Shown here: piece by piece, positions 11,624 to 21,499 of the stretch
Position numbering within the stretch: the stretch's first letter is position 1
Layout: the number at the start of each line of letters is the position of its first letter
NCBI RefSeq assembly: GCF_000027125.1
Contig: NC_017626.1
From: Escherichia coli 042
Lineage (GTDB): Bacteria > Pseudomonadota > Gammaproteobacteria > Enterobacterales > Enterobacteriaceae
Strand: one strand, 5' to 3'
Length of the DNA stretch: 64,000 bases
Notes under the pieces: generated by a model
Databases searched by the model: none
Told to the model about the DNA's origin: nothing
What the model saw: only the letters and a program-made list of their open reading frames with translations
Made by a program: the position numbers and the translations under genes

Positions 11624-12976
11624 ATGACTAAACACTATGATTACATCGCCATCGGCGGCGGCAGCGGCGGTATCGCCTCCATCAACCGCGCGGCTATGTA
11701 CGGCCAGAAATGCGCGCTGATTGAAGCCAAAGAGCTGGGCGGCACCTGCGTGAACGTCGGCTGCGTACCGAAGAAAGTGATGTGGCACGCGGCGCAAATC
11801 CGTGAAGCGATCCACATGTACGGTCCGGATTATGGTTTCGATACCACTATAAATAAATTCAACTGGGAAACGTTGATCGCCAGCCGTACCGCCTATATCG
11901 ACCGTATTCATACTTCCTATGAAAACGTGCTCGGTAAAAATAACGTTGATGTAATCAAAGGCTTTGCCCGCTTCGTTGATGCCAAAACGCTGGAGGTAAA
12001 CGGCGAAACCATCACGGCCGATCATATTCTGATCGCCACCGGCGGTCGTCCGAGCCACCCGGATATTCCGGGCGTGGAATACGGTATTGATTCTGATGGC
12101 TTCTTCGCCCTTCCTGCTTTGCCAGAGCGCGTGGCGGTTGTTGGCGCGGGTTACATCGCCGTTGAGCTGGCGGGCGTGATTAACGGCCTCGGCGCGAAAA
12201 CGCATCTGTTTGTGCGTAAACATGCGCCGCTGCGCAGCTTCGACCCGATGATCTCTGAAACGCTGGTCGAAGTGATGAACGCCGAAGGCCCGCAGCTGCA
12301 CACCAACGCCATCCCGAAAGCGGTGGTGAAAAATGCTGATGGCAGCCTGACGCTGGAGCTGGAAGATGGTCGCAGTGAAACGGTAGATTGCCTGATTTGG
12401 GCGATTGGTCGCGAGCCTGCCAATGACAACATCAACCTGGAAGCCGCTGGTGTAAAAACCAACGAAAAAGGCTATATCGTCGTCGATAAATATCAAAACA
12501 CCAACGTTGAAGGTATTTACGCGGTGGGCGATAACACGGGTGCAGTGGAACTGACACCGGTGGCAGTTGCAGCGGGTCGCCGTCTCTCTGAACGCCTGTT
12601 TAATAACAAGCCTGATGAGCATCTGGATTACAGCAACATTCCGACCGTGGTCTTCAGCCATCCGCCGATTGGTACTGTTGGTTTAACGGAACCGCAGGCG
12701 CGCGAGCAGTACGGCGACGATCAGGTGAAAGTGTATAAATCCTCTTTCACCGCGATGTATACCGCCGTCACCACTCACCGCCAGCCGTGCCGCATGAAAC
12801 TGGTATGCGTTGGACCGGAAGAGAAGATTGTCGGAATTCACGGCATTGGTTTTGGTATGGATGAAATGTTGCAGGGCTTCGCGGTGGCGCTGAAGATGGG
12901 GGCGACCAAAAAAGACTTCGACAATACCGTCGCCATTCACCCGACGGCGGCAGAAGAGTTCGTGACCATGCGTTAA
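11624..12976 (+). CDS. gor: glutathione reductase
   Basis: 450-aa ORF with GGGSGG FAD motif and redox-active [13 protein letters not shown]. Confidence 0.97.
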
Positions 12977-12982
12977 ATGTTA

Positions 12983-13013
12983 AAGGGCAAAGAGTGGTGT
13001 GCTCTTTGCCCTT
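12983..13013. terminator. hairpin between convergent gor and dinQ
   Basis: 12-bp perfect stem aagggcaaagag-tggtgtg-ctctttgccctt. Confidence 0.7.
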
Positions 13014-13029
13014 AGTTACGTTTCCGCTA

Positions 13030-13113
13030 TCAGTTCAGAAGCTGAAGCAGAAAGCGGATCAGTTCCAGCAGCGCAATTAACGCCCCAAGAACGATGATTG
13101 CTTTATCAATCAC
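13030..13113 (-). CDS. dinQ: type I toxin peptide DinQ (27 aa, membrane)
   Basis: Hand translation of the minus strand gives GTG-IDKAIIVLGALIALLELIRFLLQLLN-stop. This ORF is below the track cutoff. It sits between gor and arsR as in K-12. Confidence 0.85.
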   Translation of the reverse strand: MIDKAIIVLGALIALLELIRFLLQLLN

Positions 13114-13187
13114 CCGTTTTCTCCATGCGATGGAGTGAGAATGCATCCGCTTACTCATCCACTGCCTGTCACGGCGCATGTCTCATT

Positions 13188-13220
13188 GTTAGATAAGAAC
13201 TCTCTCACTCCGGCCAGAGC
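13188..13220. repeat. dinQ-leader copy of the agr repeat (target of AgrB pairing)
   Basis: gttagataagaactctctcactccggccagagc matches 13619-13651 at 31 of 33 positions and matches 13387-13419 less well. Confidence 0.8.
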
Positions 13221-13304
13221 ATCAGTTAACGGCACCACCCGTACTTCTGACCAGGACTTTGAAAGCGTTTATGCGCATTACCAGAGTGAAAATGCCTCAG
13301 AGCT

Positions 13305-13324
13305 AACTGGATAATCATACAGTA
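13305..13324. promoter_or_regulatory. LexA (SOS) box upstream of dinQ
   Basis: aaCTGGataatcatACAGta fits CTG-N10-CAG and taCTGTatatatatACAGta. It lies ~190 nt upstream of the dinQ start on the dinQ side. Confidence 0.75.
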
Positions 13325-13386
13325 CATGCAGGTTATAAAACCAGCACGTCCTTGCAATAGTTTCAGTATGGTATTAGCATTGATGC

Positions 13387-13470
13387 GTTAGATGATGGCA
13401 TTCTCACTCCAGCCAGAGCCACCAACTCAGGGCTGAAGAGTAAAAAAACCGACGCAAAGTCGGTTTTTTT
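13387..13470 (+). ncRNA. agrA: AgrA small RNA (dinQ-region repeat RNA)
   Basis: Repeat unit ending in the terminator aaaaaaaccgacgcaaagtcggttttttt. The 5' end is approximate. Confidence 0.7.
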
Positions 13471-13618
13471 ACATCCGGATTCGGACAAGGCTTAATATGA
13501 CGATGACCCAGTGAAAGTATATAAATCGTCACTGCGATATATACCGAAGTGCTCCCTCCGCCAGCTGAAGAAACCGCTAATTCTTGCAATGTTAGCCACT
13601 GGCTAATAGTATTGAACC

Positions 13619-13701
13619 GTTAGATAAGAGCTCTCTCACTCCAGCCAGAGCCACCAACTCAGGGCTGGAAAGTAAAAAACCGACGCAAAGTCGGTTTTTT
13701 T
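13619..13701 (+). ncRNA. agrB: AgrB small RNA (antitoxin-like repressor of dinQ)
   Basis: Second repeat unit with the same terminator, aaaaaaccgacgcaaagtcggttttttt, and the best complementarity to the dinQ leader. The 5' end is approximate. Confidence 0.75.
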
Positions 13702-13770
13702 ACGTCCTGATTCAGACCTCCTTTCAAATGAATACCCAACGCTTAATTCACACCTATTACCTTCCTCTGC

Positions 13771-13829
13771 ACATACACATTCGTTAAACCATATATGTTT
13801 TTGACTTATCCGCTTCGAAGAGAGACACT
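13771..13829 (+). promoter_or_regulatory. ars promoter with upstream ArsR operator region
   Basis: TTGACT (13801-13806), 17-bp spacer, GACACT (13824-13829). The AT-rich dyad-like acatacacattcgttaaaccatatatg lies just upstream, where ArsR is known to bind. Confidence 0.55.
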
Positions 13830-13853
13830 ACCTGCAACAATCAGGAGCGCAAT

Positions 13854-14207
13854 ATGTCATTTCTCTTACCCATCCAACTGTTCAAAATTCTTGCTGATGA
13901 GACCCGTCTGGGCATCGTTTTACTGCTAAGCGAGCTGGGAGAGTTATGTGTCTGCGATCTCTGTACTGCCCTCGATCAGTCGCAGCCCAAGATATCCCGC
14001 CACCTGGCGCTTCTTCGTGAAAGCGGGCTATTGCTGGATCGCAAGCAGGGTAAGTGGGTTCATTACCGCTTATCGCCGCATATTCCAGCATGGGCAGCGA
14101 AAATTATTGAGCAAACAAGATTAAGCCAACTGGACGACGTGCAGGCTATCGCCCGTAAGCTGGCCGCAGCCAACTGCTCTGCAGACGGTAAAGCAAGCTG
14201 CAGTTAA
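13854..14207 (+). CDS. arsR: arsenite-responsive repressor ArsR
   Basis: 117 aa with the ELCVCDLC As(III)-binding motif and an HTH. Confidence 0.95.
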   Translation: MSFLLPIQLFKILADETRLGIVLLLSELGELCVCDLCTALDQSQPKISRHLALLRESGLLLDRKQGKWVHYRLSPHIPAWAAKIIEQTRLSQLDDVQAIARKLAAANCSADGKASCS

Positions 14208-14254
14208 AAAATTTGCCTGGATATATATGATTTTCCGAATGTGAGGTGTCGAAG

Positions 14255-14617
14255 ATGAAGACGTTAACGGTGTTTGATCCGGCGATGTGTTGCAGTACCG
14301 GCGTCTGTGGTTCTGATGTTGATCAGGTGCTGGTCGATTTTTCCGCAGATGTGCAATGGCTGAAAAGCCGCGGTGTTCAGGTCGAACGTTACAATCTCGC
14401 GCAGCAACCGATGAGTTTCGTGCAAAACGAAAAAGCGAAAGCGTTTCTTGAGGCTTCCGGGGCGGAAGGATTGCCCTTGATCTTACTGGGAGGCGAAACC
14501 GTGATGGCGGGCCGTTATCCGAAACGCGCCGAGCTAGCCCGCTGGTTTGGGATCCCGCTGGAGAAGGTGGGGCTGGCACCAACACACTGCTGTGGCGGAA
14601 AAACCGACTGTTGTTGA
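14255..14617 (+). CDS. arsD: arsenic metallochaperone / secondary regulator ArsD
   Basis: MKTLTVFDPAMCCSTGVCG... (Cys12/13/18 motif) with a C-terminal HCCGGKTDCC. ATG at 14255 gives 120 aa, as in R773 ArsD. Confidence 0.92.
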   Translation: MKTLTVFDPAMCCSTGVCGSDVDQVLVDFSADVQWLKSRGVQVERYNLAQQPMSFVQNEKAKAFLEASGAEGLPLILLGGETVMAGRYPKRAELARWFGIPLEKVGLAPTHCCGGKTDCC

Positions 14618-14634
14618 GCCGGTCAGGGGGACAT

Positions 14635-16386
14635 ATGAAATTCTTACAGAATATCCCGCCTTATCTGTTTTTTACCGGTAAGGGAGGTGTAGGTAAAACG
14701 TCAATTTCCTGCGCAACTGCTATCCATCTGGCGGAACAGGGAAAACGGGTTCTGCTTGTCAGCACCGACCCCGCGTCGAATGTCGGTCAGGTATTTAATC
14801 AAACTATTGGTAACGCTATTACTCCTGTGACAGCGGTTCCCGATTTGTCAGCGCTGGAAATTGACCCTCAGCAAGCCGCTGAACAGTATCGGGCCAGAAT
14901 CGTTGACCCTATCAAAGGACTTCTCCCTGAGGAGGTTGTAAATAGTATACGCGAACAACTTTCGGGAGCATGTACGACAGAGATCGCGGCGTTCGATGAG
15001 TTCACCGGTTTACTGACCGATGCCTCTCTGCTGGCCCGCTTTGATCACATCATTTTTGATACCGCGCCAACGGGCCATACCATACGACTTCTGCAGCTCC
15101 CCGGTGCCTGGAGCAGTTTTATTGAAAGTAATCCCGATGGTGCCTCCTGTCTTGGCCCGATGGCTGGGCTGGAAAAACAGCGTGAGCAGTACGCTGATGC
15201 GGTAGAAGCATTATCCGATCCTGAGCGTACCCGCCTGGTGCTGGTTGCACGCCTGCAAAAATCAACATTGCAGGAAGTCGCTCGCACTCATGAAGAACTG
15301 GCAGCGATTGGTCTTAAAAATCAGTATCTGGTGATCAACGGCGTATTGCCTGAGTCCGGGCAGCAAAATGACCCACTAGCAATGGCAATAGTTCAGCGTG
15401 AGCAGGAAGCCCTGGTAAATTTACCCGCCGGTTTATCGACCATTCCAGCAGATACCCTCTTTCTTCAACCGGTGAACATGGTTGGCGTGCCTGCATTAAA
15501 AGGTCTTTTTAATACCCGTTTCGAGCCTGCCCCACTCTCTGGCCAGGTGCGCCAGCAATTCTCTGAAAACATGTCATTCTCTGAGTTAGTGAATGATATT
15601 GCCCGCAGTGAACACGGTCTGATCATGCTGATGGGAAAAGGCGGCGTGGGGAAAACCACAATGGCCGCAGCTATCGCCGTCAGGCTGGCAGATATGGGAT
15701 TCGATGTGCATCTTACAACCTCCGATCCTGCTGCCCACATTAACACTACCCTAAACGGCACACTTAACAACCTACAGGTCAGCAGGATCAATCCGCAGGA
15801 AGAGACCGAGCGCTATCGCCAGCATGTCCTTGAGACAAAGGGAAAAGATCTCGATGAAGCGGGGAAACGACTGCTGGAAGAGGATTTACGCTCTCCCTGC
15901 ACCGAAGAGATTGCTGTATTTCAGGCGTTCTCGCGCGTGATCCGTGAGGCGGGTAAACGTTTTGTGGTGATGGATACCGCACCAACCGGTCACACGCTGT
16001 TACTGCTGGATGCCACCGGGGCTTATCACCGTGAAATTGCGAAAAAAATGGGCGAAAAAGGTCACTTTACTACGCCAATGATGCAACTTCAGGATCCGCA
16101 ACGCACCAAAGTGCTGCTGGTTACGCTGCCTGAAACCACACCCGTACTGGAAGCGGCTAATTTGCAGGCCGATCTTAAACGCGCAGGGATTCATCCCTGG
16201 GGCTGGATAATCAATAACTGCCTTTCTATTGCGGAAACTCGTTCGTCGCTACTGTGTCAGCGAGCAACGCAGGAACGACCACAAATTGAGGCGGTGATGG
16301 CCCGACATGCTAAGCGTGTAGCGCTGGTCCCTCTATTCGCACAAGAACCTACGGGTATCGAAAAACTCAGAAAGCTGGCAAGTTAA
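14635..16386 (+). CDS. arsA: arsenite-stimulated ATPase ArsA
   Basis: MKFLQNIPPYLFFTGKGGVGKTS... Two Walker A loops (GKGGVGKTS, GKGGVGKTT) and two DTAPTGHT signature sequences. 583 aa from the ATG at 14635. Confidence 0.95.
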   Translation: MKFLQNIPPYLFFTGKGGVGKTSISCATAIHLAEQGKRVLLVSTDPASNVGQVFNQTIGNAITPVTAVPDLSALEIDPQQAAEQYRARIVDPIKGLLPEEVVNSIREQLSGACTTEIAAFDEFTGLLTDASLLARFDHIIFDTAPTGHTIRLLQLPGAWSSFIESNPDGASCLGPMAGLEKQREQYADAVEALSDPERTRLVLVARLQKSTLQEVARTHEELAAIGLKNQYLVINGVLPESGQQNDPLAMAIVQREQEALVNLPAGLSTIPADTLFLQPVNMVGVPALKGLFNTRFEPAPLSGQVRQQFSENMSFSELVNDIARSEHGLIMLMGKGGVGKTTMAAAIAVRLADMGFDVHLTTSDPAAHINTTLNGTLNNLQVSRINPQEETERYRQHVLETKGKDLDEAGKRLLEEDLRSPCTEEIAVFQAFSRVIREAGKRFVVMDTAPTGHTLLLLDATGAYHREIAKKMGEKGHFTTPMMQLQDPQRTKVLLVTLPETTPVLEAANLQADLKRAGIHPWGWIINNCLSIAETRSSLLCQRATQERPQIEAVMARHAKRVALVPLFAQEPTGIEKLRKLAS

Positions 16387-16428
16387 TTTTTTATACAGGG
16401 CGACCATGTCGCCCTGTCAGGAGGGTGT

Positions 16429-17718
16429 ATGTTACTGGCAGGCGCTATTTTTGTCCTGACCATCGTATTGGTTATCTGGCAGCCGAAAGGTTTAGGCATC
16501 GGCTGGAGTGCAACGCTCGGCGCGGTACTGGCGTTGCTTACGGGCGTGGTTCATCCGGGTGATATTCCGGTGGTGTGGAATATCGTCTGGAACGCGACGG
16601 CGGCGTTTATTGCCGTCATTATCATCAGCCTGCTGCTGGATGAGTCCGGCTTTTTTGAATGGGCGGCGCTGCACGTCTCACGCTGGGGCAATGGACGCGG
16701 TCGCTTGCTGTTCACCTGGATTGTCCTGCTCGGTGCCGCCGTTGCAGCTCTGTTTGCCAATGATGGCGCGGCGCTGATTTTAACGCCAATTGTCATCGCC
16801 ATGCTGCTGGCTTTAGGATTCAGTAAAGGCACTACGCTTGCGTTTGTGATGGCGGCCGGGTTCATTGCCGATACCGCCAGCCTGCCGCTTATTGTCTCCA
16901 ACCTGGTGAATATCGTTTCCGCAGATTTCTTTGGCCTCGGCTTTCGCGAATACGCATCGGTGATGGTGCCGGTGGATATCGCCGCAATTGTTGCCACGCT
17001 GGTGATGTTGCATCTTTATTTCCGCAAAGATATTCCGCAGAACTACGACATGGCGCTGCTGAAATCGCCCGCAGAAGCGATTAAAGATCCTGCTACGTTC
17101 AAAACTGGCTGGTTTGTTTTACTGTTTCTGCTGGTGGGATTTTTCGTCCTGGAACCGCTCGGCATTCCGGTAAGCGCCATTGCGGCAGTGGGCGCGCTGA
17201 TATTATTTGCCGTCGCTAAACGCGGTCATGCAATTAATACGGGTAAAGTCCTGCGCGGTGCGCCCTGGCAGATTGTCATCTTCTCGCTCGGCATGTATCT
17301 GGTGGTTTATGGCCTGCGCAATGCCGGACTAACGGAATATCTTTCTGGCGTACTCAACGTGCTGGCGGAAAACGGCCTGTGGGCCGCGACGCTCGGCACC
17401 GGATTCCTCACCGCCTTCCTCTCTTCTATTATGAACAATATGCCGACGGTACTGGTTGGCGCGTTGTCCATTGATGGCAGCACGGCATCTGGCGTTATCA
17501 AAGAAGCGATGGTTTATGCCAACGTGATTGGCTGCGATTTGGGACCGAAAATTACCCCAATTGGTAGCCTGGCTACGCTACTCTGGCTGCACGTACTTTC
17601 GCAGAAGAATATGACTATCAGCTGGGGATATTACTTCCGTACAGGAATTATCATGACCCTGCCGGTGCTTTTTGTGACGCTGGCTGCGCTGGCGCTACGC
17701 CTCTCTTTCACTTTGTAA
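16429..17718 (+). CDS. arsB: arsenite/antimonite efflux permease ArsB
   Basis: 429-aa polytopic ORF recognised as ArsB. Confidence 0.95.
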
Positions 17719-17730
17719 TGAGATATTGAT

Positions 17731-18156
17731 ATGAGCAACATTACCATTTATCACAACCCGGCCTGCGGTACGTCGCGTAATACGCTGGAGATGATCCGCA
17801 ACAGCGGTACAGAACCGACCATTATCTATTATCTGGAAACACCGCCAACGCGCGATGAGCTGGTCAAACTCATTGCCGATATGGGGATTTCCGTACGCGC
17901 GCTGTTGCGTAAAAACGTCGAGCCGTATGAGGAACTGGGCCTTGCAGAAGATAAATTTACTGACGATCGGCTAATCGACTTTATGCTTCAGCACCCGATT
18001 CTGATTAATCGCCCGATTGTGGTGACGCCGCTGGGAACTCGCCTGTGCCGCCCTTCAGAAGTGGTGCTGGAAATTCTGCCAGATGCGCAACAACGCGCGT
18101 TCACCAAGGAAGATGGCGAGAAAGTGGTTGATGAAGCGGGTAAACGCCTGAAATAA
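17731..18156 (+). CDS. arsC: arsenate reductase (glutaredoxin-coupled) ArsC
   Basis: 141 aa. MSNITIYHNPACGTSRNTLEMIR contains the catalytic Cys12. Confidence 0.96.
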   Translation: MSNITIYHNPACGTSRNTLEMIRNSGTEPTIIYYLETPPTRDELVKLIADMGISVRALLRKNVEPYEELGLAEDKFTDDRLIDFMLQHPILINRPIVVTPLGTRLCRPSEVVLEILPDAQQRAFTKEDGEKVVDEAGKRLK

Positions 18157-18202
18157 AGCGGCGATATCCACTGCCGATAGTTGGTAAAGTGCGCTTCGTT
18201 TA

Positions 18203-18296
18203 TGTCGGATGCGACGCTAACGCGTCTTATCCGACCTACAAAACCGTGCAAATTCAATATATGGCATGAAATCTGTAGCGCGTAGCGCATCAGGCA
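18203..18296. repeat. REP/BIME-type palindromic units
   Basis: tgtcggatgcgacgctaacgcgtcttatccgacctaca, plus the inverted unit gcgtagcgcatcaggc. The second unit abuts or overlaps the stop of the ArsR-like gene. Confidence 0.8.
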
Positions 18297-18586
18297 ATTT
18301 TGCTATTTACGCAGCACTCCTCGCGTAAGAATTCAATTATCGCTTCCAGCATTGCGTATTGCGAAACACACATCAGCGTCCGACTCTCACGGTTTTGTTT
18401 GACCAGCCCTACCGATACCAGTGCTGAAATATGGTGACTGAGTGTAGAGCCGGGTATCCCAAGCTGCTTTTGCAACTCACCGACCGGCAAACCTTGTTCC
18501 CCCGCTTTGACCAGGTGTTTGAATATGAACAAACGGGTCGGGTGACCTAGCTCTTTCAGCGCTTTAGCAACTTCTTCCAACTGCAT
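18290..18586 (-). CDS. ArsR/SmtB-family HTH regulator (second copy, C-terminal vicinal Cys type)
   Basis: 98 aa. wHTH segment HPTRLFIFKHL...GSTLSHHISALVSVGLV. It lacks the CVC motif but has Cys73 and a C-terminal ECC. The SD AGGGGG lies 6 nt before the ATG. Confidence 0.85.
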   Translation of the reverse strand: MQLEEVAKALKELGHPTRLFIFKHLVKAGEQGLPVGELQKQLGIPGSTLSHHISALVSVGLVKQNRESRTLMCVSQYAMLEAIIEFLREECCVNSKIA

Positions 18587-18609
18587 ATGACACCCCCTTT
18601 GTCTGGTTG

Positions 18610-18670
18610 ATATTTCGATAATACCAGAAATATCTTGATCTGAATTTCATTTCGATTATTCTGGAAATAT
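18610..18670. promoter_or_regulatory. two tandem operator-like inverted repeats in a divergent promoter region
   Basis: IR1 is ATATTTC-N10-GAAATAT (18610-18633, perfect 7-bp arms). IR2 is tcATTTC-N10-GAAATAT (18647-18670). The 21-mers starting tttcgat match each other at 17 of 21 positions. Confidence 0.6.
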
Positions 18671-18693
18671 GGATTCATTCAATGAGGTTACGT

Positions 18694-19695
18694 ATGAGTA
18701 GTTGGCTTGCGATGCTGCAAGATGCCGCAGAGATGTTTGTGTTTCTCGCCGTCGAGCTTTCTTTGCTGTTTATAGTGATTAGTGCCGGTGTCAGCCTGAT
18801 AAGACAAAAGGTGCCAGACCATAAAATCCAGCAGATGATGGGGGCCAGAAAAGGGAGAGGCTATCTCCTGGCGGCTCTGTTGGGAGCCGTTACCCCGTTC
18901 TGTAGTTGCTCGACAATCCCCATGTTACGTGGATTGTTGTCAGCGAAAGCCGGGTTCGGTCCGACCCTCACTTTTTTATTTGTTTCACCGTTACTTAATC
19001 CCATTATCGTCGGACTAATGTGGGTAACCTTTGGCTGGAAAGTTACCTTGTTGTACGCGATTATCGCCGCCGGCATCTCCGTACTTGCCAGTATTATCCT
19101 CGATTCTCTGGGGTTTGAACGTCATATCATTGCCAGTAAAAGCTCATCAGCAAATTGTTGTGCTCCAGCCAAAACTTCGCCAGGGACGACATATACGCCC
19201 ATAAAAGTGAGTTGCTGTAGTCCAGCGGCTAAAGTCATTGAGAAACCCGCAGTTAACTGTTGCAGTACCAAAGCAGTGGCAAGTATTAATCCCATAAAAT
19301 TAGCCATCAAAGATGCATTGCAGCAGTTTAAAGACGTACTGCCATATCTTGTGTTAGGGGTATTACTAGGCTCTTTTATTTATGGCTTTATCCCCTCACA
19401 GTGGATTGCCGCTCATGCAGGGGCAGATAATCCCTTCGCCATCCCATTGAGCGCCGTTGTCGGAATTCCGCTGTATATCCGGGCAGAGGCGGTTATCCCT
19501 CTGGCATCTGTTCTGATGACAAAAGGAATGGGTCTGGGAGCATTAATGGCATTAATCATCGGCAGTGCCGGAGCAAGCCTGACGGAAGTGATATTACTTA
19601 AATCAATGTTCAGAATACCGATGATAGTTGCATTCCTGACGGTTATATTAGGTATGGCTATCTTGATGGGCTATTTGACTCAAATGCTATTTTAA
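18694..19695 (+). CDS. ArsP/DUF318-like permease with Cys-rich loop (putative metalloid or organoarsenical efflux)
   Basis: Polytopic ORF with a TPFCSCSTIP motif in an early TM segment. A central loop carries three CC pairs. The ATG at 18694 is preferred because GAGG lies 7 nt upstream. The track start at 18682 is also possible. Confidence 0.75.
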   Translation: MSSWLAMLQDAAEMFVFLAVELSLLFIVISAGVSLIRQKVPDHKIQQMMGARKGRGYLLAALLGAVTPFCSCSTIPMLRGLLSAKAGFGPTLTFLFVSPLLNPIIVGLMWVTFGWKVTLLYAIIAAGISVLASIILDSLGFERHIIASKSSSANCCAPAKTSPGTTYTPIKVSCCSPAAKVIEKPAVNCCSTKAVASINPIKLAIKDALQQFKDVLPYLVLGVLLGSFIYGFIPSQWIAAHAGADNPFAIPLSAVVGIPLYIRAEAVIPLASVLMTKGMGLGALMALIIGSAGASLTEVILLKSMFRIPMIVAFLTVILGMAILMGYLTQMLF

Positions 19696-20275
19696 ATAGA
19701 TGCCAGCAGTAAACTATAAGGAGCATTGTGAGTGCCTTATCCTTCTGAGTAGAAAATCATAGATAGGATAATCCTTAAAAATCACAAATAACTTAACTAA
19801 TGCTTTGAGAATGATGACGGATCCGTCAGTAAGTCATCAATCGACAATCACCACGCAATCATGCTTCTCTGACATTTTATCGGAGAAGCAATGTCTCTTT
19901 GTTTCAGTGCTATCCCCCCTTTTAAAGGGCAGATTTCAGTCGCCAATACAACACATTTTTAAATACACTTTAACCTGGTTCATTATTACACATCTAAAAC
20001 ATCACAAAAATATCACTTCACACACTATCGGTGAACATCATAACTTTTTAAAATGAGCGCTTTTTGATAGTTGTTAACGTTTTCCTTTACGATACTATCA
20101 CTGCCCTTTTTTTATACACAAATATTACCGGGTGGAGATAAAAGGGAAATCAAAGGTAATTATATCAGGAAGAGATAACGCATTACATTTATTGTGTGTA
20201 GAAGAAAATCCATTCCTGTTCTAATTATCCAATTTAAACATCTTAGCATAAAACAAATGATGAATAAGGAATTTT

Positions 20276-21499
20276 ATGTCAATTGACTTTACCCCAGGTA
20301 TGATAAATACATATCACGGCGATATTTATAACCGCACAACAGATACCGACAATGTTAAAACACCAGACACACCGATGTGGCCTTGTGATAATCAGGAAGA
20401 ACAGCAGCCCATTAATTTTTCATTGTCTGAAGAAGGATATAACGCTGAACAATTTGATTTAGCGCAACAACAACTCCAACAAATTAATGCGTACCACACG
20501 AACACCACATATACAAATGCAGACTACTCAAAAATTGTGGCTCAAATTGTAAGTCTTATTAATAACATTGAAACGATAAGTTCGACACCACTTACGCAAC
20601 AGACACAATCAATACTTAATCAGATTAATAACATTAGATACGAAAAGAATAAAAATTCTGAATGTCGAATCATTGTTGTCGCTAATCCTAAACCCGACAA
20701 GGCAATCATAACTAAAATTAGCGTAGAAGAGGGAATACCAGTAAGATTCAGTGTCCAAACCATGTTTTCAGATACTAATTTTATTACTGAACAACGAGCT
20801 GACTTACCGACTAATATAAAAGATATTCAAAGCCTGTATCAAAAAATGACGAAGTTATATATTGAGCACAGTGAAAATAAAAACAGGATGAAAGTCTTTG
20901 CCGGAACCAACTTTATTGATTTCAATATGACAGGACAGAACCTGTCCGGGTTCGTTCTAACCTTGTCAAGGTTTTATTTCGAAGATCTACTTAATATAAA
21001 TTTCACTGACGCAAATTTAGGTGACGCTATTTTTTCACATAAAGAACACCCTACCCCAAAATTATATAAAGACGAACAATACCTTGACAAACAAATCGAA
21101 GGTTTATTTTCAACATTATTAACCATTAATGACAACTTTTTACGAGCAAAAGCGGAAATTGCTTCGACAATAATTAAATTCTTAGAGGCCAGGATAACCA
21201 ATATTTCATACAATGACATATTAAAATATCAGAAAGAATTCCAAAAGCAATGTTATAAGCAAGTTAAAGCCTTTACGACACTCTCCCGATACAATAAAAT
21301 TCAAACATGGGCAGAAATGTCTGAATATCAATTCGAAGTATTTCAATACGAGATGCTTAACCCCAAAAAAATGTCATACGCACCTTATTTAAAGAGATCG
21401 CTACCTGATGAAAAAACTATAAATTATGGGGTGGAAATAGAAACACCAACTGGCAAAAGAATTCGCTTATCAAATCATTACCAGAATATAATCCCATAA
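20276..21499 (+). CDS. yhiS: YhiS, uncharacterised AT-rich protein (intact here)
   Basis: 407-aa ORF between ars and slp, AT-rich. It has a Q/N-rich N-terminal third and a short pentapeptide-repeat-like stretch ([13 protein letters not shown]...[13 protein letters not shown]). Confidence 0.75.

Follow-up and report, generated by a model that had tools for sequence, protein, structure and literature searches.

A divergent regulator-permease pair after the ars operon of Escherichia coli 042, a probable counterpart of the SpArsR-arsP organoarsenical unit

In Escherichia coli 042, two divergently transcribed genes are found directly after arsC of the ars operon, within the 64,000-nucleotide stretch of contig NC_017626.1 (RefSeq assembly GCF_000027125.1) analysed here and referred to as the window. 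One encodes a 98-aa regulator of the ArsR/SmtB family and the other a 333-aa permease of the ArsP family (PF03773). On sequence grounds, the regulator is orthologous to SpArsR, which experiments in Shewanella putrefaciens 200 characterised as a repressor selective for methylarsenite (MAs(III)), and the pair is probably the E. coli counterpart of the SpArsR-arsP unit, i.e. a self-contained sensor and exporter of trivalent organoarsenicals such as MAs(III). The SpArsR-arsP system type has already been characterised, and the E. coli pair is a further member of it. Since the system type is known, specialists in arsenic resistance will not be surprised. The source database names the two products only 'permease' and 'ArsR/SmtB family transcription factor', and our literature search returned no paper that describes the pair in E. 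coli, the operator, the disappearance of the unit from K-12 or its spread on plasmids and a phage. A first-pass annotation, made from the sequence without database searches, had placed a second ArsR-family regulator and a divergent ArsP-family permease directly after arsC, and both open reading frames (ORFs) are indeed present there (Table 1).

Relationship to SpArsR-arsP

SpArsR is described as an AfArsR-like protein without the third cysteine of AfArsR; Cys101 and Cys102 are reported to be the ligands of a two-coordinate MAs(III) site, and As(III) to give no response. A 2025 biosensor paper (PMC12124457) prints the SpArsR coding sequence together with a 222-bp arsP promoter under SpArsR control; in the published layout, arsP lies '222 bp upstream', and the promoter was used in a working biosensor. 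For comparison, the SpArsR sequence was reconstructed from the Sp-ars gBlock in the supplement of this paper, two bases missing from the PDF text being restored by stitching frames. The reconstructed protein has 105 aa with cysteines at positions 83, 101 and 102, and a database protein (P0325, locus L048) is 98% identical to it, which confirms the reconstruction. The window's regulator is 57% identical to P0325 over 92 aa (E = 9e-41), and its Cys73, Cys91 and Cys92 align with Cys83, Cys101 and Cys102 of SpArsR. At locus L048, a 332-aa PF03773 gene is divergent from the SpArsR-like gene across a spacer of 221 bp, which fits the published 222 bp. The window's permease is 53% identical to this divergent arsP over its full length (E = 3e-115), whereas identity to the other PF03773 paralogue at this locus is no more than 29%.

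The likeness to SpArsR-ArsP (Sput200_1227 and Sput200_1226) comprises the divergent layout, the same three cysteines in the regulator, CC dipeptides in the loop of the permease and a 22-nt operator core. There are also differences. The E. coli regulator lacks a 10-residue N-terminal extension of SpArsR, and the distance between the operator boxes is 37 nt in E. coli compared with ~100 nt in Shewanella. The neighbours are arsRDABC in E. coli 042, whereas the Shewanella locus contains an arsC of the low-molecular-weight phosphatase (LMWP) type, a second arsR, arsP2 with a thioredoxin gene, and genes for glyceraldehyde-3-phosphate dehydrogenase (GAPDH) and a major facilitator superfamily (MFS) protein.

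The regulator

The first-pass annotation had read an ArsR/SmtB winged helix-turn-helix in the regulator, and profile searches bear this out: HTH_20 (E = 1.5e-14, 54.2 bits; cut-off 27), HTH_5 (E = 5e-7, 29.9 bits; cut-off 22) and the NCBIfam ArsR/SmtB metalloregulator model NF033788 (61.9 bits; cut-off 55) all score above their cut-offs. The AlphaFold2 (AF2) model, with a predicted local distance difference test score (pLDDT) of 93.8, has the topology alpha1-alpha2-alpha3-alpha4-beta1-beta2-alpha5, and nearly all of its top 50 fold matches are ArsR/SmtB-family proteins. The protein, which ends in ...REECCVNSKIA, contains three cysteines. In the model, Cys73 (codon 18370-18372) lies in the beta-wing strand 70-75, helix alpha5 ends at residue 88, and Cys91-Cys92 sit just past this helix. 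All three are invariant in 43 orthologues of the regulator (55-93% identity). The second known MAs(III)-selective ArsR, NdArsR, shares the C-x17-CC pattern with the regulator and SpArsR; the cysteine corresponding to Cys73 is thus present in both characterised MAs(III)-selective ArsRs, though the literature gives binding to the vicinal pair only.

Comparison with the known binding sites places the regulator in the SpArsR type. The Cys32-Cys34-Cys37 (CVCDLC) site for As(III), which type 1 (R773/K-12) ArsRs have in the DNA-binding domain, is absent. The ArsR encoded at 13854 is of this type and belongs to the same fold family and locus, but is only ~27% identical to the regulator and alone has the CVC site; as had been noted from the sequence, the regulator has no ELCVCDLC, the aligned positions being GLPVGELQ without a cysteine. 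In the Protein Data Bank (PDB), 6J05, the structure of AfArsR from Acidithiobacillus ferrooxidans, is the best match on both sequence (E = 4.7e-10, 30% identity) and fold (TM 0.88), and Cys91/92 align residue for residue with its Cys95/96, so that the suggested likeness to the C-terminal site of Acidithiobacillus-type ArsR also holds. However, the type 2 three-ligand As(III) site of AfArsR (Cys95/Cys96/Cys102) is incomplete in the regulator, which ends 6 residues past the CC pair with no further cysteine and thus has no counterpart of Cys102, and which carries the conserved Cys73 in its wing as an extra. A vicinal pair without a third C-terminal cysteine, as in SpArsR, is what the regulator has.

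The permease

The permease matches PF03773 (ArsP_1) with 176 bits (E = 1.2e-51; cut-off 32.3) over residues 13-334 of a 337-aa ORF. This mechanically called ORF begins 12 nt upstream of the annotated gene, at 18682; the ATG at 18694 is the likely start because a GAGG lies 6 nt upstream, the orthologues begin with MNSW or MSSW, and the Prokaryotic Genome Annotation Pipeline (PGAP) makes the same choice. The hydropathy profile shows ~8 hydrophobic segments split by a hydrophilic loop, as described for the ArsP family (4+4 transmembrane segments, TMS). Homologues of ArsP have been divided into a ~300-aa type and a ~400-aa type, the latter with a hydrophilic insert between TMS4 and TMS5 (Castillo and Saier, 2010). 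The loop of the window's permease holds three CC dipeptides, and such dipeptides are found in 16 of 18 orthologues (>=47% identity), including the S. putrefaciens-like arsP; the two exceptions are 51-52% identical. Hydropathy and the positive-inside rule gave contradictory answers on membrane topology, and a search of the PDB returned no entry related to the permease by sequence.

The first-pass annotation had taken the motif TPFCSCS as a hallmark of ArsP. This did not hold, since the motif is present in every aligned PF03773 homologue down to ~30% identity, except YraQ (CTCC), and thus also in homologues without ars neighbours; it marks the family and not the substrate. Its carriers include two paralogues, one linked to a thioredoxin gene and one adjacent to sil genes, and a gene that lies next to that of a MarR-family regulator on a Bacillus plasmid. 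A literature search on the TPFCSCS motif, on Cys65/Cys67 and on the WP accessions of the E. coli and plasmid proteins returned nothing useful. With the founding member of the family, Campylobacter jejuni ArsP (TCDB 2.A.119), which was compared by family and description only, the permease shares PF03773 and a link to ars operons. The Cys-rich insert of the window's permease is ~60 aa long. YraQ of E. coli K-12 belongs to the same Pfam family; however, CTCC replaces FCSCS, the alignment is poor and there is no ArsR partner. The annotation of phage Chris1 (see below) calls its copy of the permease 'YraQ family'.

The operator

The spacer between the two genes contains two operator boxes (Table 1). 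The 22-nt core of box 1, TTCGATAATACCAGAAATATCT, is identical to the core of the S. putrefaciens arsP promoter. The operator motif occurs twice in the 64-kb window, i.e. only in the two boxes, against 0.02 occurrences expected by chance, and when ten spacers from taxa between Escherichia and Pseudoalteromonas are aligned, the boxes stand out as islands of conservation. Its 18-mer core was found in 23 of 48 fetched loci, always inside the regulator-permease spacer. Promoter-like hexamers at 18607-18636 (+ strand) and 18682-18655 (- strand) each overlap one box, the number of such sites not being above chance. At the sequence level, the layout and the core match point to control of the adjacent arsP via an operator in the spacer.

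A mechanism may be outlined from these data. The repressor, presumably a dimer, would bind the two ATTTCGAT-N-GAAAT boxes over both divergent promoters and keep its own gene and the permease gene off. MAs(III), and probably phenylarsenite or reduced roxarsone, each with only two sulfur ligands, would bind to Cys91-Cys92 and release the repressor. The permease would then export the organoarsenical via the CSC motif in the membrane, probably driven by the proton gradient, and the CC-rich loop may aid in capturing the substrate. The repression step draws on homology and on the identical operator core. We infer by analogy what induces the system, what is transported and how export is energised, with SpArsR and C. 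jejuni ArsP as the models for inducer release and export. C. jejuni ArsP is reported to export MAs(III) and trivalent roxarsone and not As(III).

Genomic context

In a species-level survey with one genome per species, 30 loci encoding a relative of the permease were collected. At least 15 of these 30 have ars genes within 10 kb of the permease, a lower bound as several contigs are short, in at least six arrangements. In Escherichia, arsR(DA)BC is followed by the pair. In six Aeromonas species, the regulator heads an arsR'-arsD-arsA-arsC(LMWP)-phosphatase-GAPDH-MFS-acr3-arsC island and is divergent from the permease. In Buttiauxella, arsRBC converges with the pair in some cases and precedes it upstream in others, and in a Pseudomonas metagenome-assembled genome arsB is followed by the permease. 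A permease 63-65% identical to that of the window lies inside an arsR'-arsD-permease-arsA-acr3 operon in Deefgea, where there is no SpArsR-type gene. A plasmid of Staphylococcus equorum encodes a permease of 37% identity that is accompanied by an ArsR of its own and is divergent from arsD-arsA. The link to arsenic is robust, because chance adjacency would be only ~1% by a rough estimate. In A. veronii, E. ruysiae, Serratia, Limnobaculum and marine gammaproteobacteria, the unit stands alone, and therefore it is self-contained.

The arsD-arsA genes of Aeromonas and Deefgea are headed by a second regulator, which is AfArsR-like (EECC-x6-C, 27-33% identical; L021, 9143-9511; L032, 9173-9547), and both ArsR site types coexist at one locus. 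Another PF03773 paralogue, with 29-33% identity, repeatedly precedes a gene for a small thioredoxin-family protein (L048, 4418-6103; L047, 4785-5997), and was found in the ars island of Shewanella as well as on a plasmid of C. freundii.

An allele of the pair with 75-80% identity is carried by 648 plasmids in PLSDB, 456 of them conjugative, mainly from Escherichia, Salmonella and Klebsiella; the carriers are mostly IncF, IncX or of IncHI size. On the two plasmids examined (L011 and L012), the allele is flanked by IS26 or IS1 with no ars genes nearby. One plasmid has a copy of dinQ ~2 kb upstream of the allele, a hint of chromosomal origin. The plasmid sources were often pig, chicken or duck, in a spread sample without controls, which at most suggests an enrichment in poultry or pig isolates. 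A paralogous pair of a helix-turn-helix regulator and a permease (52% and 47% identical, respectively) lies near silE/silRS/silCFBA on the IncF plasmid p253 (L013), with ISL3 and IS1 elements between. In Citrobacter lambdoid prophages (L003-L006) and the temperate phage Chris1 (ON041214.1; L049/L050), a seven-gene cargo, arsRDABC-regulator-permease, lies between replication gene P and dinI.

Function and alternative explanations

The first-pass annotation had proposed an organoarsenical sensing and efflux arm. The orthology to the SpArsR-arsP unit speaks for such an arm and makes it the best reading, while the substrate itself is assigned by analogy. Several points weigh against it. The identities of 57% (regulator) and 53% (permease) are low enough to permit a shift in specificity, and the invariant Cys73 could be a third ligand in the dimer, which would allow As(III) sensing. 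In Deefgea, the permease lies between arsD and arsA with an AfArsR-like CC-x6-C regulator, which points to inorganic As(III). In A. veronii, in Serratia and on the two IncF and IncX plasmids examined, as in many further copies, the surrounding 7-10 kb contain no other ars gene, and other members of PF03773 have Cu/Zn phenotypes. The AF2 model of the permease (18 close homologues; pLDDT 44.7) was unusable, and our search turned up no published account of transport by the S. putrefaciens ArsP.

The alternative that survives best is that the pair is a general As(III)/Sb(III) sensor and exporter, a backup or partner to ArsB/ArsA, in which Cys73 together with Cys91/92 of the other subunit makes a three-sulfur site, while As(III) is passed on from the CC-rich loop to the CSC site, much as from ArsD to ArsA. 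Vicinal cysteine pairs are a feature of ArsD. The invariance of Cys73 together with the CC pair would fit this proposal, and so would the geometry of the model, with Cys73 in strand 70-75 and alpha5 ending at residue 88, the alpha5 helices being antiparallel in ArsR/SmtB dimers. It also draws on the gene order of Deefgea with its AfArsR-type regulator. In the phylogenetic study of Castillo and Saier (2010), the E. coli ArsP homologue is encoded with arsA and clusters with those of Aeromonas hydrophila and Yersinia; there, cooperation of ArsA with ArsP was proposed, and the 'Eco' ArsP and its ArsA partner cluster alike in both trees. However, SpArsR has the same three cysteines and is reported not to respond to As(III); likewise, C. 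jejuni ArsP is reported not to export As(III). In addition, As(III) is already provided for in this strain by ArsD, ArsA and ArsB. We consider this alternative unlikely.

A bolder version of the organoarsenical reading is that the enterobacterial and Aeromonas ArsP clade, with 2-4 CC dipeptides in a hypervariable loop, is a distinct subtype in which the loop acts as an ArsD-like capturing arm and the permease can be driven by ArsA, giving an ATP-driven organoarsenical pump on conjugative plasmids and temperate phage in Enterobacteriaceae of humans and livestock. It is suggested by the arsD-arsP-arsA-acr3 order of Deefgea and by the arsDA-bearing haplotype of the window, and we regard it as quite unlikely.

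Two further explanations fit the context and the orthology poorly. The permease might be an exporter of soft metals (Cu, Zn, Cd, Hg or Ag) similar to SO_0444, with a metal-sensing repressor and an incidental proximity to ars. Its top NCBIfam matches are indeed the SO_0444 Cu/Zn efflux family (NF033936, 109.2 bits) and SaoE (NF040736, 86 bits), which belong to the same fold family and have the CSC motif in common; Shew_3410, a DUF318 protein, matters under zinc stress; on an IncF plasmid, silE/silRS adjoin a paralogous pair whose permease is 47% identical; and some plasmid copies have no ars neighbours. However, both scores are far under the respective cut-offs of 300 and 325, so that the permease is a member of neither family. 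The recurrent ars linkage in many arrangements and the orthology to a characterised arsenical system, operator included, also oppose a soft-metal exporter, and the regulator appears, from its sequence, to lack the His/Asp ligands in alpha5 that are typical of Zn sensors. An exporter of this kind is thus very unlikely. Scarcely credible is a thiol-redox or persulfide sensor (BigR-, SqrR- or YgaV-like) controlling a permease for sulfur compounds: YgaV (3CUO) and BigR (3PQJ) are the second and third PDB sequence matches of the regulator and recur among its fold matches, there is a weak NCBIfam match to BigR (38.5 bits), and some PF03773 paralogues precede a thioredoxin-family gene, but the BigR score is far under its cut-off of 155, the positions of the cysteines are presumably unlike those of the BigR/SqrR pair, the thioredoxin-linked permeases are a different paralogue with only 29% identity, and both the ars linkage and the SpArsR orthology argue against it.

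Distribution in E. coli and loss from K-12

The complete pair was found in 2219 of 5426 complete E. coli genomes and arsDA, which is rare on E. coli chromosomes, in 255. The pair is thus about nine times commoner than arsDA and usually lies beside arsRBC. The first-pass view of the pair as an appendage of the arsRDABC operon is at odds with these counts and with the copies that stand alone in Aeromonas veronii, in E. ruysiae and on plasmids. An allele >=99% identical to the pair of the window was found in 176 records, and arsDA (14255-16386) at >=99% identity in 177; because of these near-equal counts, the arsRDABC-plus-pair block of the window looks like a single, lineage-specific minority haplotype.

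Between arsC and yhiS, E. coli K-12 MG1655 lacks the two genes, in agreement with the first-pass annotation, and only degraded remnants of both are left: the 3' end of the regulator gene and an internal piece of the permease gene (Table 1). Collinear homology with K-12 resumes at 19967. The same annotation had suggested that the repetitive extragenic palindromic (REP) unit at the regulator stop marks an insertion junction. The truncated REP overlaps the stop codon of the regulator; however, both REPs are also present in K-12, followed there by the remnants, which contradicts an insertion. Since K-12 retains pieces of both genes, the pair was lost from K-12 by two deletions.

The locus of the pair has decayed independently several times (K-12, L001 5805-5929; L014; L041; LR-58-2). 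Shigella flexneri lacks the regulator together with permease codons 1-10, one E. coli genome retains residues 183-333 of the permease only, and strain LR-58-2 has an IS5 inserted within the pair.

Significance

Methylarsenite, whose toxicity greatly exceeds that of arsenite, arises in two ways: anaerobic bacteria that methylate arsenic release it as a product, and it forms when organoarsenical herbicides or feed additives such as roxarsone are reduced. If the organoarsenical reading is right, ~4 in 10 complete E. coli genomes and ~650 plasmids, most of them conjugative, would carry a dedicated MAs(III) sensor and pump. K-12 is the usual host for arsenic biosensors and ars genetics, and its loss of the unit may explain why the unit has been neglected in E. 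coli. According to a review on the gut microbiome and arsenic, no evaluation of ArsP activity has ever been made in gut bacteria. The operator and repressor would also provide an enterobacterial set of parts for MAs(III)-specific biosensors.

Other features of the locus

Table 1. Features of the regulator-permease locus in the window (aa, amino acids; nt, nucleotides)
Feature	Position	Strand	Basis
REP units, from arsC to the regulator stop	18202..18296	.	full REP 18202-18239; truncated REP 18274-18296
Regulator gene, 98-aa SpArsR-type ArsR/SmtB repressor	18290..18586	-	ORF, Pfam and NCBIfam matches
Regulator 3' end kept in K-12, ~70 nt, ~80% identity	18290..18359	.	sequence comparison
Spacer with divergent promoter and operator region, 107 bp	18587..18693	.	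sequence, phylogenetic footprint
Operator box 1, GATATTTC-N10-GAAATATC, whole GATATTTCGATAATACCAGAAATATC, perfect 8-nt inverted repeat	18609..18634	.	footprint, motif scan
Operator box 2, CATTTCGATTATTCTGGAAATAT, 37 nt downstream of box 1 in the same register	18648..18670	.	footprint, motif scan
Permease Shine-Dalgarno GAGG	18684-18687	+	read from sequence
Permease gene, 333 aa, PF03773/ArsP_1, arsP-like	18694..19695	+	ORF, Pfam match, PGAP start
TPFCSCS codons, residues 67-73, presumed thiol site in the transport path	18892..18912	+	sequence, conservation
Hydrophilic central loop, variable length, three CC dipeptides (residues 155-156, 174-175, 189-190)	19114..19293	+	alignment, hydropathy
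Internal permease piece kept in K-12, 42 nt, 81% identity, E = 7e-7	19300..19341	.	sequence comparison
Terminator-like hairpin 3' of the permease	19862..19890	+	consensus scan only

The order of genes in the window is gor, dinQ, two AgrB-family small RNAs (sRNAs), arsR, arsD, arsA, arsB, arsC, the regulator-permease pair, yhiS, slp and dctR. The GC content is ~47% in the pair, compared with ~52% in ars and ~33% in yhiS; base composition was considered as a sign of foreign origin and set aside, the value of the pair being intermediate between those of its neighbours and thus uninformative. An Rfam scan of 12900-21000 gave two matches to AgrB-family sRNAs between dinQ and arsR (13388-13472 and 13620-13703; 94 and 108 bits), and nothing else. 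K-12 has agrA and agrB at the position of these two matches. The yhiS gene (20276-21499) gave no Pfam or NCBIfam match; it is intact in the window, encoding 407 aa at ~33% GC, whereas in K-12 it is a pseudogene split by IS5.

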